Shown here piece after piece: positions 23,393 through 32,120 of a DNA stretch of 64,000 bases (position 1 is the stretch's first letter; every line of letters begins with the position of its first letter). The notes beneath the pieces are model-generated. The model did no database searches, was not told the DNA's origin, and saw only the letters and a list, made by a program, of their open reading frames with translations. The translations under genes and the position numbers were made by a program. The stretch comes from Escherichia coli 042 (GTDB lineage Bacteria; Pseudomonadota; Gammaproteobacteria; Enterobacterales; Enterobacteriaceae), in NCBI RefSeq assembly GCF_000027125.1, contig NC_017626.1. The stretch is one strand, 5' to 3'.

Positions 23393-24313
23393 ATGCTTAA
23401 TTACGTTATCAAACGCTTACTGGGGTTGATTCCAACGCTGTTTATCGTCTCGGTGCTGGTGTTTTTATTTGTGCATATGCTGCCCGGCGATCCGGCGCGA
23501 TTGATTGCCGGGCCCGAAGCTGATGCGCAGGTTATAGAACTGGTGCGTCAGCAGCTGGGGTTGGATCAGCCGCTGTATCACCAGTTCTGGCACTATATCA
23601 GCAATGCTGTGCAGGGGGATTTTGGCCTGTCGATGGTGTCGCGTCGTCCGGTTGCCGATGAGATTGCCAGCCGCTTTATGCCAACGCTGTGGCTGACCAT
23701 AACCAGTATGGTCTGGGCGGTGATATTTGGTATGGCGGCGGGAATTATCGCCGCCGTCTGGCGTAATCGTTGGCCGGATCGATTGAGTATGACCATTGCG
23801 GTGTCGGGGATCTCGTTTCCGGCATTTGCTCTGGGGATGCTTTTAATTCAGGTATTCTCCGTTGAACTGGGCTGGCTGCCTACCGTGGGAGCAGACAGTT
23901 GGCAGCACTACATTTTACCCTCCCTGACGCTCGGCGCGGCAGTGGCAGCCGTGATGGCGCGCTTTACCCGCGCGTCGTTTGTCGATGTTTTAAGCGAAGA
24001 TTATATGCGTACCGCGAGGGCGAAAGGGGTGAGCGAAACCTGGGTTGTCCTCAAACACGGGCTACGTAACGCGATGATCCCGGTTGTGACCATGATGGGC
24101 TTACAGTTTGGCTTTTTGCTCGGTGGTTCCATCGTGGTGGAGAAGGTTTTCAACTGGCCCGGACTTGGACGCTTACTCGTTGACTCCGTAGAAATGCGCG
24201 ATTACCCGGTGATTCAGGCGGAAATTCTGCTTTTCTCGCTGGAATTTATTCTTATCAACTTAGTGGTGGATGTGCTTTACGCCGCCATTAACCCGGCTAT
24301 CAGGTACAAGTAA
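23393..24313 (+). CDS. gsiC: Glutathione ABC transporter permease GsiC (306 aa)
   Basis: DppB/OppB-like permease; operon position after gsiB. Confidence 0.93.
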
Positions 24314-24315
24314 GG

Positions 24316-25227
24316 ATGCGACTATTTAACTGGCGACGTCAGGCGGTGTTAAACGCCATGCCACTGGTCAAACCTGACCAGGTACGTACACCGTGGCATG
24401 AATTCTGGCGACGATTTCGCCGTCAGCATATGGCGATGACCGCCGCATTGTTCGTTATTTTATTGATTGTGGTGGCTATTTTTGCACGCTGGATCGCTCC
24501 CTATGACGCCGAAAATTATTTTGATTATGACAATCTGAATAACGGACCTTCTTTGCAGCACTGGTTTGGCGTTGATTCACTGGGGCGTGACATTTTCAGC
24601 CGTGTCCTGGTTGGTGCACAAATCTCGCTGGCGGCGGGCGTGTTTGCCGTGTTTATCGGTGCGGCGATCGGGACGTTGCTGGGCTTGTTGGCTGGATATT
24701 ATGAAGGCTGGTGGGATCGGCTGATCATGCGCATTTGCGATGTGCTGTTTGCCTTCCCTGGTATTTTACTGGCGATCGCTGTTGTTGCGGTGTTGGGAAG
24801 CGGCATTGCTAACGTGATTATTGCAGTCGCCATTTTTTCCATCCCCGCGTTTGCCCGACTGGTGCGCGGCAACACGCTGGTGTTGAAACAGCAAACTTTT
24901 ATTGAATCGGCGCGCAGTATTGGTGCCAGCGACATGACCATCTTATTGCGCCATATCTTGCCCGGGACTGTCTCGTCTATCGTGGTGTTTTTCACCATGC
25001 GCATCGGTACCTCGATTATCTCTGCCGCCAGCCTGTCATTTCTCGGCCTCGGTGCGCAGCCGCCGACACCAGAGTGGGGAGCAATGCTCAATGAGGCACG
25101 AGCGGATATGGTTATCGCGCCGCATGTCGCTATTTTTCCGGCCCTGGCTATTTTTCTGACTGTACTGGCGTTCAATTTGTTGGGTGATGGTTTACGCGAT
25201 GCGCTGGATCCGAAAATTAAAGGATAG
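24316..25227 (+). CDS. gsiD: Glutathione ABC transporter permease GsiD (303 aa)
   Basis: DppC/OppC-like permease; follows gsiC with a 2-nt gap. Confidence 0.93.
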
Positions 25228-25404
25228 TTACGTTTGAATATTGCTTGAAAGGGTAATCACCTCACAGGAAATTATTGCCCTAAGCAAGTGTTGTAACTTT
25301 CTGCTGATTTTGTAGAATCGGGTAATTTGGTTAAAAAGCCGCAGCAAGGGACAATTTTTGCAGCGGTACAGCGTTCAGATAGTTATTTTGTTAAATGTAT
25401 TAAC

Positions 25405-27760: not shown

Positions 27761-29089
27761 ATGTCCAGAATCAATAAGTTCGTACTTACAGTCAGTCTGC
27801 TGATTTTTATCATGATTTCAGCAGTTGCCTGCGGGATCTACACTCAAATGGTAAAGGAACGGGTGTATGGCCTGAAACAGTCCGTTATTGATACTGCTTT
27901 TGCGGTGGCAAATATTGCTGAATATCGGCGTAGCGTGGCAATTGATCTCATCAACACGCTAAACCCCACGGAGGAACAGCTGTTGGTTGGCTTGCGCACA
28001 GCTTACGCCGACTCGGTTTCACCCTCTTATTTGTACGATGTCGGTCCTTATCTGATTTCCAGTGACGAATGTATTCAGGTAAAGGAGTTCGAGAAAAATT
28101 ATTGTGCAGATATTATGCAGGTTGTGAAGTATCGACATGTCAAAAATACAGGGTTTATCTCTTTTGACGGTAAAACTTTCGTCTATTACCTCTATCCGGT
28201 AACTCACAATCGCAGTCTGATATTTTTGCTTGGTCTGGAGCGTTTTTCTTTACTGTCAAAATCGCTGGCGATGGATAGCGAGAACCTGATGTTCTCTCTG
28301 TTTAAGAACGGTAAACCGGTGACCGGTGATGAATATAATGCTAAAAACGCCATCTTCACCGTTTCGGAAGCGATGGAGCACTTCTCCTATTTGCCGACCG
28401 GATTGTACGTATTTGCGTATAAAAAAGATGTTTATTTGCGGGTTTGTACGTTGATTATTTTCTTTGCCGCATTGGTGGCAGTGATATCGGGTGCCAGTTG
28501 CCTCTATCTGGTACGCAGAGTGATTAATCGTGGTATTGTGGAGAAAGAAGCCATTATTAATAACCATTTTGAACGCGTACTAGATGGCGGGCTTTTCTTT
28601 TCGGCTGCCGATGTCAAAAAACTCTACAGTATGTATAACTCGGCGTTCCTGGACGACCTGACTAAAGCGATGGGCAGAAAATCCTTTGACGAAGATTTAA
28701 AAGCGCTACCGGAAAAAGGTGGTTATTTGTGCCTGTTTGACGTCGATAAATTCAAAAACATCAACGACACCTTCGGTCATTTGCTGGGCGATGAAGTGTT
28801 GATGAAAGTGGTGAAAATCCTTAAATCACAGATCCCGGTAGATAAAGGTAAAGTCTACCGCTTCGGCGGTGACGAATTTGCGGTGATTTATACGGGTGGA
28901 ACGCTGGAAGAGTTGCTATCGATTCTAAAAGAAATCGTTCATTTCCAGGTGGGAAGCATTAATTTAAGCACCAGTATCGGTGTAGCGCATTCAAATGAAT
29001 GTACTACCGTCGAACGCTTGAAAATGCTGGCGGATGAGCGGCTGTATAAGAGTAAGAAAAACGGCAGGGCGCAGATTAGCTGGCAGTAG
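27761..29089 (+). CDS. dgcI: Diguanylate cyclase DgcI (YliF), 442 aa
   Basis: Membrane/sensor N-terminus plus GGDEF domain (RFGGDEFAV); AT-rich. Confidence 0.9.
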
Positions 29090-29106
29090 AATTAGAATAG
29101 TGTTAG

Positions 29107-29130
29107 TACCCCTTAATCAAGGGGTACTAA
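29107..29130. repeat. Perfect hairpin palindrome agtacccctt-aatc-aaggggtact between convergent dgcI and the antitoxin gene
   Basis: 10-bp perfect stem with 4-nt loop read from the sequence; sits between the stops of convergent dgcI (29089) and the antitoxin (29159). Confidence 0.5.
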
Positions 29131-29158
29131 TGAATGTGGTAAATCATTTGCAAACATT

Positions 29159-29488
29159 TTACTTTGCAAAAACTTCCGGTCCTTTTATTGCCAATGTATT
29201 CAAAATACGTAGTGCCGGGCCGCTCGGTTTTATTTCATTTCGTTCCCATTTCGAGACACTTTCTTTTGACATTCCCATTGTATGTGCCAGCACGGATTGT
29301 GACATGCCGTATCGGGTGCGGATGGCTTTGATCTCTTCACCCGTCATTGATTTGACTTTGGCTATACGGGCGCTGACTTCACGAGCTTTGACCATGACGG
29401 CAATGGCATCAACTTCACTATCAGACATCAGGCCCAGTGCATTCAGTTCCTTTGCATCTTCCAGCATCATTTGTAATTTATCGCTCAT
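29159..29488 (-). CDS. HigA-2-like antitoxin with C-terminal XRE-type HTH domain (109 aa)
   Basis: MSDKLQMMLEDAKELN...EIKAIRTRYGMSQSVLAHTMGMSKESVSKWERNEIKPSGPALRILNTL: HTH followed by the W-E-x-x-x-x-P-S-G-P-A signature remembered from HigA-2/YiaG-like antitoxins; ATG overlaps the upstream toxin 3' end by 11 nt. Confidence 0.8.
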   Translation of the reverse strand: MSDKLQMMLEDAKELNALGLMSDSEVDAIAVMVKAREVSARIAKVKSMTGEEIKAIRTRYGMSQSVLAHTMGMSKESVSKWERNEIKPSGPALRILNTLAIKGPEVFAK

Positions 29489-29864
29489 TTTTCACCTCAA
29501 TCAAAAAGCCAGTTTCGATCAAATCCTCTATTTGCTTATTGCTAAAGGCCAGAAATGCATTTGCCATTTTTTTGTAGGCCACCAGTTCATCATCTTCGAT
29601 TTCTTTGGTTCCTTTACTGCTTAGACCACTCTTGGACCAACCATCATAAAAAAACACATGATTTGCTGATTTAAAAAAGATAATTGTTCTGGCTCCACCA
29701 CTCTTTCCTTGTTGGAGGGGTAAACGTTTTTTGATGACACCGCTACCTAAATCAGCCTCCCATATGCCTTGCATCACTTCTTCAGCGGCAGCCATGAGAA
29801 CTTTATCGTGAATACCAAGTTTTTTCGTGCTTTGGCTGAATCGTCTTGCCTTATACACACCCAT
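29478..29864 (-). CDS. HigB-2-like (RelE-fold) type II toxin, putative ribosome-dependent mRNA interferase (128 aa)
   Basis: MGVYKARRFSQ...QQGKSGGARTIIFF...FFYDGWSKSG...IEDDELVAYKKMANAF: GK-GG-R-I-F ... K ... L core resembles Vibrio HigB-2-type toxins (from memory); toxin-first arrangement with translational overlap to a downstream HTH antitoxin. Confidence 0.8.
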   Translation of the reverse strand: MGVYKARRFSQSTKKLGIHDKVLMAAAEEVMQGIWEADLGSGVIKKRLPLQQGKSGGARTIIFFKSANHVFFYDGWSKSGLSSKGTKEIEDDELVAYKKMANAFLAFSNKQIEDLIETGFLIEVKNER

Positions 29865-29879
29865 ACATCCATCCTTGTG

Positions 29880-29916
29880 GTAATGTTTACTATAGTAACC
29901 ATTACGCTTATTTCAA
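29880..29916 (-). promoter_or_regulatory. Putative sigma70 promoter (-35 TTGAAA, 16 nt, -10 TATAGT) of the toxin-antitoxin operon with overlapping operator palindrome
   Basis: Minus-strand read: TTGAAA(29916-29911)-N16-TATAGT(29894-29889); imperfect palindrome GTAATGnTTACTATAGTAAnCATTAC (29880-29905, 2 mismatches) spans the -10. Confidence 0.5.
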
Positions 29917-30040
29917 GTAATTGCGATCAAAACTTTAATTTGGTGTGAAAAAGTGAGAGTTGCCTCGAGTATGATTCATTTTTCTCGATTTATACGTCAG
30001 GGGATTTTGTGCGTAAGGGTAGGACATGGGAAGGGTAGCA

Positions 30041-30078
30041 GAGGCAGATCGAAGAACAATATCCTTGTTAGATCTGCC
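30041..30078. repeat. Interrupted inverted repeat aggcagatc...(aacaa-tatcc-ttgtt)...gatctgcct just downstream of rimO
   Basis: Read from the sequence; possible rimO terminator hairpin and/or right boundary of the toxin-antitoxin cassette. Confidence 0.4.
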
Positions 30079-30088
30079 TTTAGATTAA

Positions 30089-31414
30089 TTAAACCCGGCT
30101 ACCCCACAAATCGTACTCATCGGCGTGCTCGACTTTCACACGCAGGATATCACCTGGCTTAACGTTGGTTTCACCATTGAGATAAACCGCGCCGTCGATT
30201 TCCGGTGCATCTGCCATGCTGCGACCAATCGCGCCTTCTTCGTCCACTTCGTCGATAATCACCAGAATTTCACGGCCCACTTTCTCTTGCAGGCGCTCGG
30301 CGGAAATCTGCTGCTGCAGCTGCATGAAACGGTTCCAGCGTTCTTCTTTCACTTCTTCCGGAACCTGGTCAGGCAGGGCATTGGCGTCCGCACCTTCAAC
30401 CGGGCTGTATTTAAAGCAGCCAACGCGATCCAGACGTGCTTCTTTCAGGAAGTCGAGTAGCATCTGGAAATCTTCTTCCGTCTCGCCAGGGAAGCCGACA
30501 ATAAAGGTTGAGCGTAAGGTCAGTTCCGGGCAGATTTCGCGCCACTGTTTGATGCGCGCCAGTTGGCGATCTACAGAACCCGGACGCTTCATCAGTTTGA
30601 GAATGCGCGGGCTGGCGTGCTGCAACGGAATGTCCAGATACGGCAGGATTTTGCCTTCTGCCATCAGTGGGATGACGTCGTCCACATGCGGATAAGGGTA
30701 AACGTAGTGCAGACGTGTCCAGATCCCCAGTTTCGATAACTGTTCGCACAGGCTGACCATGCTGGTTTTTACCGGCTCGCCGTTGTGGAAGCCAGTACGA
30801 TGTTTAACATCGACGCCATAGGCGGAAGTATCCTGCGAGATCACCAGAATCTCTTTAACGCCCGCATCAACCAGACGTTTAGCTTCACTTAACACTTCGC
30901 CGATCGGACGGCTCACCAGGTCGCCGCGCATAGACGGAATAATGCAGAAGGTGCAGCGGTGATTACAGCCTTCCGAAATTTTCAGATAGGCATAATGACG
31001 CGGCGTCAGTTTCACACCTTGTTCTGGCACCAGGCTCAGGAATGGGTTGTGTTTCGGTTTTGGCACGTAGTGATGAACGTGCTCCAGAACCTGCTCATAG
31101 CTATGAGGCCCGGTGATTTCCAGCACTTTCGGGTGGACTTCGCGGATCTGATCTTCTTTTGCCCCCAGACAACCGGTCACAATTACCTTGCCGTTTTCAT
31201 TCAACGCTTCACCAATGGCTTCCAGTGATTCTTGTACCGCGCTGTCAATAAAGCCGCAGGTGTTGACGATCACCATGTCCGCATCGTCATAGCTCGGTAC
31301 CACGTCATAACCTTCAGTGCGTAGTTCGGTGAGAATACGCTCTGAATCGACAAGGTTTTTCGGACAGCCAAGGGAAACAAAGCCGATTTTCGGCTGGGGA
31401 GTTACTTTGCTCAT
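30089..31414 (-). CDS. rimO: Ribosomal protein S12 methylthiotransferase RimO (441 aa)
   Basis: [20 protein letters not shown]...; radical-SAM CxxxCxxC (CNHRCTFC) and MiaB-like architecture. Confidence 0.95.
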
Positions 31415-32010: not shown

Positions 32011-32120
32011 AAACTAAGGGGGAGAAAGCGTCTCCCCCTTCATGTTTAAGTTTTTGTAAAAATGAATTTGTTATCTCCTCCACTGACTACGCTTTAAGCC
32101 AGAGTCAATCCGGAGGCGTT

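Follow-up and report, generated by a model that had tools for sequence, protein, structure and literature searches.

The two palindromes that bracket a toxin–antitoxin (TA) gene pair between dgcI and rimO in Escherichia coli 042, here HP1 and HP2, are probably ordinary RNA hairpins at transcript ends, and they belong to the TA-bearing one of two alleles of the dgcI–rimO spacer. All positions are those of the stretch of DNA that was analysed (64,000 nucleotides; the window), and the arrangement of convergent dgcI, TA pair and rimO is as the initial annotation had described it (Table 1).

Table 1. Features of the dgcI–rimO interval, with positions in the window
Feature	Position	Strand	Remarks
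dgcI (diguanylate cyclase gene)	27761–29089	+	Convergent with the TA operon; stop codon 29087–29089
Allele-specific segment, ~995 bp	29090–30083		Substitutes for the whole dgcI–rimO intergenic region
HP1, perfect 12-bp stem, 4-nt loop	29103–29130		Between convergent dgcI (+) and the antitoxin gene (−)
Antitoxin gene, 109 aa, HTH_3 (Xre-type) DNA-binding domain	29159–29488	−	Stop codon 29159–29161
Toxin gene, 128 aa, RelE-like (Pfam PF06296)	29478–29864	−	E = 2.3e-32, full-length profile
26-bp palindrome GTAATGTTTACTA/TAGTAACCATTAC	29880–29905		Over the −10 box; putative TA operator
TA promoter-like site, TTGAAA, 16-nt spacer, TATAGT	29889–29916	−	10/12 matches; −35 at 29916
C-rich, G-poor stretch	29942–30041	−	Directly downstream of HP2 on the rimO strand; candidate Rho-utilisation (rut) region
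HP2, interrupted inverted repeat, 9-bp outer stem, 4–5-bp inner stem	30042–30079	−	9 nt past the rimO stop codon
rimO	30089–31414	−	Upstream of the TA operon, co-directional; stop codon 30089–30091

The cargo between HP1 and HP2 has the make-up of a type II TA operon with the toxin gene first, in which a PF06296 toxin is paired with an Xre/HTH_3 antitoxin, the activity of both being predicted. The likeness extends to the full PF06296 profile, the HTH_3 domain, the adjacent small genes overlapping by 11 nt, and the palindrome over the −10 box, which is probably the autoregulatory operator of the TA operon. RefSeq labels the toxin as a type II TA RelE/ParE family toxin, while NCBIfam gave no toxin-model match for it and PADLOC no defence-system model. 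The promoter-like site is kept in related loci of UBA5654 and Kluyvera and in a locus with 82% nucleotide identity (L012), and the operator pattern GTAATnnTTACTATAGTAAnnATTAC is kept across three genera, plus L012. The difference from type II TA operons lies in HP1 and HP2, which are outside the conserved TA module.

Both inverted repeats reported in the initial annotation are present, with coordinates that had been 1–2 nt off. HP1 (TTAGTACCCCTT-aatc-AAGGGGTACTAA) has a stem of 12 bp rather than 10, the 10-bp version being real and lying at 29105–29128 instead of 29107–29130, and HP2 (AGGCAGATC-gaag-AACAA-tatcc-TTGTT-a-GATCTGCCT) lies at 30042–30079 instead of 30041–30078; the outer distance between the two is 977 bp. 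HP1 starts 13 nt past the dgcI stop codon, its other end is 28 nt past the antitoxin stop codon, and as a palindrome between both stops it is transcribed from both sides. Folded as RNA, HP1 is markedly stable on the + and − strands (−21.4/−17.7 kcal/mol; z = −4.6/−5.0), with none of 200 shuffles reaching the same value. The fold of HP2 (−17.6/−16.4 kcal/mol) has a modest z-score (−2.3/−2.6), equalled by 4 and 2 of 200 shuffles. The patterns of HP1 and HP2 did not occur in 100 dinucleotide shuffles of the window, and perfect hairpins with a stem of at least 10 bp number six in the 64 kb, compared with ~0.5 per shuffle.

The spacer exists in two unrelated forms. Homology to K-12 breaks off at the dgcI stop codon, which is TAG here but TAA in K-12, and restarts at ATTAATTAA (30084–30092), 5 nt before the rimO stop codon, so that 999 bp separate the two stop codons in the cassette allele versus 46 bp in K-12. 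The 46-bp spacer holds a hairpin of its own (CAGGCCGG-a-CAAA-tgat-TTTG-c-CCGGCCTG; fold −20.3/−25.2 kcal/mol). A comparison of the two spacers, meant to tell simple insertion from simple deletion, found no significant similarity (best local score 20, equalled by 11% of shuffles) and, judged from the sequences, the intergenic region has been replaced in its entirety, which is not the same as a clean insertion or a clean deletion.

Using a set of 5426 complete E. coli genomes, of which 5425 have the locus, it was possible to establish how the two forms are distributed. A single match to at least 80% of the 1.8-kb query was found in 1129 of the 5425; 1138 genomes have the HP1 region, 1136 have the HP2 region, and 4287 have the K-12 hairpin. 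As 1138 and 4287 together make 5425, the alleles are mutually exclusive and exhaustive, with a hairpin at each gene end in every allele and with unrelated sequences. About 21% of the complete E. coli genomes, O157:H7 among them, have the TA-bearing allele, and SNP density within the cassette is comparable to that of flanking dgcI. HP1 and HP2 each occur once per genome in the census and once in the window. The initial statement that the TA genes are bracketed by the hairpins is thus upheld, and the census assigns both hairpins to the allele that carries the cassette. The same source had proposed a comparison with TA-free genomes, in which unchanged copies of both hairpins would mark them as ordinary core terminators; neither HP1 nor HP2 is present there, an unrelated hairpin being found instead, and since the alleles are mutually exclusive the two palindromes are not core terminators.

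Strict linkage to the presence of the TA genes could equally be expected if the palindromes were relics of the recombination sites of an inserted mobile cassette (att/attC-like sites, terminal inverted repeats, or hairpin targets of a transposase), a reading that the low GC content of the cassette (39–44% vs 52–55% for rimO) and a single GTTAGAT in HP2, which fits the attC R' core GTTRRRY, may seem to favour. This origin is nonetheless very improbable. There is no target-site duplication, the cassette ends share no direct or inverted similarity, the K-12 spacer is not split by an insert but wholly replaced with no residual similarity, and each hairpin is single-copy in every genome, the same hairpins being absent from unrelated sites in about 5400 genomes and in the plasmid and phage sets. 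A transposon or insertion junction, with terminal inverted repeats and a target-site duplication, was accordingly rejected, as no repeat links the ends and, where an empty site would be expected, the TA-free allele has an unrelated 46-bp sequence.

Two classes of palindrome were compared with HP1 and HP2 in the same context. REP/BIME elements and attC sites are, like them, imperfect or perfect intergenic palindromes, often between convergent genes, and in chromosomal integrons TA cassettes have attC sites on either side. The attC definition, applied by inspection, comprises paired RYYYAAC ... GTTRRRY cores, a length of about 57–141 nt, and extrahelical bases. HP1 and HP2 are too short and lack paired core sites: HP1, a perfect palindrome of 28 nt, has no core sites at all, and HP2, at 38 nt, carries GTTAGAT on one arm with no matching RYYYAAC on the opposite arm of that strand. 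REP/BIME elements occur in many copies, whereas HP1 and HP2 have a single location in each of about 1137 genomes and no REP consensus. A dif-like reading was also rejected, and an Rfam search of 28900–30300 at a permissive E-value returned only a chance snoU49 match, with no family for either hairpin.

Matches in mobile elements give a similar picture. The phage collection contained no match to the cassette. In the plasmid collection, the three matches at ≥99% identity were all to very large records, two of them chromosome-sized (~4.9 Mb) and one of 730 kb. Matches to true plasmids (Providencia, Moellerella, and Xenorhabdus) were distant (64–70% identity) and confined to coding sequence, covering query positions 80–810, or about 29169–29899 of the window, and excluding HP1 and HP2. 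Both the lack of phage copies and the distant, coding-only plasmid matches argue against relics of a mobile cassette.

Relatives of the TA pair were sought in other genomes by a contig search, which gave four loci, two of them informative, and further contexts were obtained through protein look-ups. Related pairs (67–80% toxin identity) occupy the same neighbourhood in other Enterobacteriaceae. The order in UBA5654 is rimO (96% aa identity), a SUKH-domain gene, the TA pair, and convergent gsiD and gsiC; in Kluyvera sichuanensis it is bssR, the TA pair, and convergent gsiD; in K. georgiana-like contigs it is PTS genes, the TA pair, and convergent gsiD; and in a further locus (L025) the TA pair is followed by gsiD. 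This recurrence near gsiD in other genera indicates a TA pair that is either long established in the gsiD–rimO/bssR interval or has entered it repeatedly. In UBA5654, K. sichuanensis, and the K. georgiana-like contigs, a stable hairpin without a U-tract lies between the antitoxin and convergent gsiD stop codons, and its sequence is unrelated each time (CCCGTCAGAA...TTCTGACGGG; AGCCCGGCC...GGCCGGGCT; GGCGCTGCGTA...TACGCAGCGCC). The rimO of L012 is followed by another distinct hairpin (ATACCGCCTGC-cggat-GCAGGCGGTAT). The L012 alignment runs from 29932 to 29220, which is the end of its contig, leaving HP2 and the C-rich stretch outside; as this contig ends within the antitoxin gene, it is uninformative on HP1.

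Overall, the TA module conserved in other genera ends inside the hairpins, at about 29159–29932, and across four lineages a hairpin is kept in the same place while its sequence is not. The promoter and operator (TTGAAA...GTAATnnTTACTATAGTAAnnATTAC), in contrast to the gene-end hairpins, are conserved in sequence. RNA structures at gene ends, unlike recombination sites, are expected to be conserved in position but not in sequence, and both the limited extent of TA homology and the unrelated hairpins found with TA pairs in the same gsiD neighbourhood count against relics of recombination. The suggestion in the initial annotation that the palindromes are remnants of insertion junctions is therefore not sustained, given the missing target-site duplication, the dissimilar ends, the single-copy hairpins, the homology that stops inside them, and the unrelated hairpins at the same relative positions elsewhere.

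As to how transcription might end at these hairpins, the initial annotation had offered factor-independent termination, in which HP1 and HP2 would be classical intrinsic terminators that release polymerase alone and insulate the cassette. Like canonical intrinsic terminators, both are stable, G/C-containing stem-loops directly downstream of stop codons, near gene ends; the stem core of HP1 is G/C-rich (GTACCCC), and there is weak U content past HP1 on the − strand (CACUAUUCUAAUUCU) and past HP2 on the + strand (UUAGAUUAAUU). The U-rich tract 3' of the stem is absent from both. Carafa-type tail scores are 2.5/1.9 for HP1 and 3.2 (+)/2.1 (−) for HP2, the + strand thus having the more U-rich HP2 tail of the two; on the transcribed strands, the scores (1.9–2.5 and 2.1) are those of the background in the window (mean, 2.09; 95th percentile, 3.34), while canonical terminators in the same window reach 5.4–5.8. 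None of the scores exceeds the 95th percentile, and a consensus terminator scan called neither hairpin, in agreement with the initial observation that there is no clear U-tract. Intrinsic termination at the two hairpins is thus unlikely and, lacking a U-tract, HP1 in particular would not be a classical intrinsic terminator. The initial proposal of factor-independent terminators fares poorly for the same reason, and also because of the rut-like stretch, rich in C and poor in G, that comes after HP2 on the rimO strand.

That stretch (29942–30041) has, read on the rimO strand, C34/G11 per 100 nt and begins CUGCUACCCUUCCCAUGUCCUACCCUUACGCACAAAAUCCCC; its C–G difference of +23 is at the 99.9th percentile when all 100-nt windows from the two strands of the 64 kb are ranked. 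Downstream of HP1, the composition on the TA (−) strand is C32/G16 (97.7th percentile), and on the + strand, which is that of dgcI, it is C20/G19. Rut-like RNA therefore follows HP2 and HP1 on the − strand, whereas past HP1 on the dgcI strand there is no C>G skew, and composition gives no sign of Rho loading there. The promoter scan found no divergent promoter on the + strand from which a small antisense RNA ending at HP2 could arise.

Such an arrangement has precedents. Dar & Sorek described Rho-dependent E. coli transcripts that end at stable stem-loops without U-tracts, which protect against PNPase and RNase II and have rut sites directly downstream (PMC6061677). On the rimO strand, HP2 shows each of the three sequence features of this system (a stem-loop after the stop codon, no U-tract, and a rut-like region downstream), HP1 on the TA strand fits in part, and HP1 on the dgcI strand differs in having no C>G skew; both hairpins are stable stem-loops without a U-tract at gene ends whose transcript 3' ends are predicted. 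Rho dependence and exonuclease trimming are known for the described system, to which HP1 and HP2 are likened in sequence. The U-less tails and the rut-like stretch past HP2 point to Rho-dependent termination with a protective stem-loop, and HP2 together with the C-rich stretch suggests that such termination would occur upstream of the TA promoter. HP2 would then form the stem-loop at the 3' end of the rimO mRNA: polymerase would pass through it and reach the untranslated C-rich, G-poor stretch, Rho would terminate transcription there, about 25–125 nt before the TA promoter, and exonucleases would trim the RNA back to HP2. The presumably autoregulated TA promoter may thereby be shielded from rimO read-through. 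The supplements of PMC7815308 contain no mention of rimO, yliG, dgcI, or yliF.

For HP1, which lies between convergent genes, a second known system is relevant. The discovery of bidirectional terminators between convergent gene pairs is reportedly due to Ju et al. 2019. Liu and colleagues described hairpin-encoding bidirectional terminators between convergent E. coli genes, unlike intrinsic terminators, in which the hairpin makes polymerase pause and so sets the site at which converging polymerases collide (bioRxiv 10.1101/2022.10.23.513370). HP1 has the corresponding location, between the dgcI stop at 29089 and the antitoxin stop at 29159, and like the K-12 hairpin that it replaces it is a single palindrome between convergent genes that gives a hairpin in both transcripts. 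Overlapping 3' ends are a trait of the known system seen by SEnd-seq, and the likeness of HP1 to it is one of sequence. HP2 is not a candidate for this type, as rimO and the TA operon are co-directional. More probably than a classical intrinsic terminator, HP1 is a hairpin of this bidirectional type that pauses polymerase and defines 3' ends, in which case it would block 3'–5' exonucleases for both the dgcI and TA mRNAs and limit antisense read-through from dgcI into the antitoxin gene and from the TA operon into dgcI. For both hairpins, an insulating role at transcript ends appears to be the most plausible function.

The only common variant of HP1, 29114 T>G in the O157 lineage, opens the loop-closing pair alone, and the arms of HP2 are invariant across five diverse genomes; covariation or other informative variation is lacking within both because TA-bearing genomes differ from each other by only 1–2%. 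In strain CFSAN018748 an IS element in the loop of HP1 is tolerated, from which it follows that HP1 is not essential. In the TA-free allele, the hairpin of strain 2013C-4282 (CAGGCAGGGCAAA...TTGCCCTGCCTG) differs from that of K-12 by a double compensatory change from C-G to A-T and by repair of an internal A.C mismatch. In strain 2015C-4136CT1, 20 nt are lost between two GGCAG repeats, a perfect 11-bp stem is kept, and dgcI now terminates at a TGA in the hairpin loop; a history of deletion followed by compensatory substitution was ruled out for this strain, since the alignment of 2013C-4282 places the substitutions before the 20-nt deletion. The one compensatory change in the TA-free allele supports selection for a hairpin structure at the dgcI–rimO junction.

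These observations also bear on the idea that the palindromes are DNA-level sites for a dimeric protein (an operator or a nucleoid-protein site) or have no function. HP1 is a perfect 28-bp palindrome, and the tolerated IS element and the lack of covariation within HP1 or HP2 would be in keeping with either, but both palindromes are found downstream of genes rather than at promoters, another, conserved palindrome is the probable TA operator, and the preservation of hairpin place without sequence in four lineages fits an RNA-structure role, as does the compensatory change in the hairpin of the alternative allele. A DNA site or lack of function is therefore distinctly doubtful, and transcript-end RNA hairpins continue to be the favoured reading of HP1 and HP2.

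A more speculative extension, to which only a small chance is given, is that HP1 is a collision/pause insulator that co-evolved with the TA pair and keeps dgcI read-through from making RNA antisense to the antitoxin; strong induction of dgcI or disruption of HP1, as in CFSAN018748, would then cause the antitoxin to fall and the RelE-like toxin to be released. Were this true, transcription of a c-di-GMP gene would be tied to growth arrest, and the locus would be a natural case of gene-end hairpins re-invented with unrelated sequence at each intergenic swap.

HP1 and HP2 fit as uncharacterised instances of the already known stem-loops without U-tracts at 3' ends. In the literature, no paper was found that joins rimO, dgcI, and toxin–antitoxin, and none that cites WP_000539521. 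The result matters little beyond annotation, where core terminators and insertion scars can be set aside and the two palindromes entered as gene-end hairpins of one of two exclusive spacer alleles. The locus is a small, clean example of 3' hairpins without U-tracts that are conserved in position and not in sequence and, as both alleles, toxin-deletion variants, and an HP1 disrupted by an IS element exist, it could be a convenient natural setting in which to study Rho-dependent and collision-type termination beside a TA promoter.

At the toxin–antitoxin (TA) promoter lies a 26-bp palindrome, GTAATnnTTACTATAGTAAnnATTAC, which overlaps the -10 box (TATAGT). The palindrome has been kept in E. coli, UBA5654, Kluyvera and locus L012 (an SRR26188678 contig), while the flanking DNA has diverged, and it is the probable operator of the antitoxin.

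Coordinates of the features in the window and in the comparison loci
Feature	Location	Remark
Palindrome GTAATnnTTACTATAGTAAnnATTAC	window 29880–29905	26 bp
Counterparts of GTAATnnTTACTATAGTAAnnATTAC	L004 2460–2486; L005 2460–2486; L012 about 999–1025	
Octamer TTTGCAAA, two copies	window 29147–29154, 29163–29170	copies 16 nt apart
bssR hairpin, AAGGGGGAGA-aagcg-TCTCCCCCTT	window 32016–32040	perfect 10-bp stem; 6 nt past bssR stop codon
K-12 hairpin (TA-free allele)	L001 701–730	
In-frame 24-aa toxin deletion	L013–L015 (E. coli contigs)	window equivalent 29625–29696
dgcI 3′-end remnant	L012 864–911	48 nt; 94% identity to window 29042–29089

Beyond the other end of the module, HP1, the hairpin between dgcI and the antitoxin gene, is interrupted exactly at its loop by an IS481-family element in E. 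coli CFSAN018748 (NZ_CP028192.1; L011 290–1510). The insertion point (window equivalent about 29111–29117) carries a duplication of CCTTAAT, and the element places the HP1 arms ~1.2 kb apart. CFSAN018748 is a natural HP1 knockout in which both TA genes are retained. Just upstream of HP1 on the TA transcript, the two copies of the self-complementary octamer TTTGCAAA straddle the antitoxin stop codon (29159–29161), and by pairing they can form a small second hairpin. The hairpin past bssR likewise lacks an immediate U-tract (tail score, a measure of the U-tract, 2.2); it adds a further U-less gene-end hairpin to the neighbourhood of HP1 and HP2, the latter lying 3′ of rimO.

The hairpin of the TA-free allele differs among strains (2013C-4282, L026; 2015C-4136CT1, L021; IrN, L027). 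One strain has a compensatory change of a C-G to an A-T pair together with repair of a mismatch; in another, derived strain, 20 nt are deleted between GGCAG repeats, leaving the hairpin stem perfect and dgcI two codons longer; and in a third, ATTCGCA (7 nt) is duplicated upstream of the hairpin.

In part of the E. coli population, the toxin seems to be undergoing decay. At least 24 contigs of E. coli carry an allele that lacks residues 57–80, the conserved core, and several further shortened variants were found (P0018, P0024, P0025 and P0038). E. coli EFF60 (NZ_CP086678.1; L022 1030–1800) keeps HP1, HP2 and the antitoxin gene but has lost most of the toxin gene, together with the TA promoter, through an IS1A insertion and an adjoining deletion.

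The TA module of L012 is 82% identical to that of the window. Its locus runs from rimO through a hairpin and a HEAT-like ORF to the dgcI remnant, which lies upstream of the TA promoter; the L012 lineage therefore has dgcI and the TA pair in a rearranged order relative to rimO, which identifies the interval as a hotspot of recombination. Linkage of gsiD to the TA pair was compared between the window (23150–25240) and L004, L005, L016–L019 and L025. In Kluyvera and UBA5654, gsiD is linked to the TA pair and convergent with the antitoxin gene; in E. coli, the pdeI-dgcI pair, with a low GC content (42–46%), lies between gsiD and the TA pair. The pdeI-dgcI genes may themselves be a later arrival in the interval.
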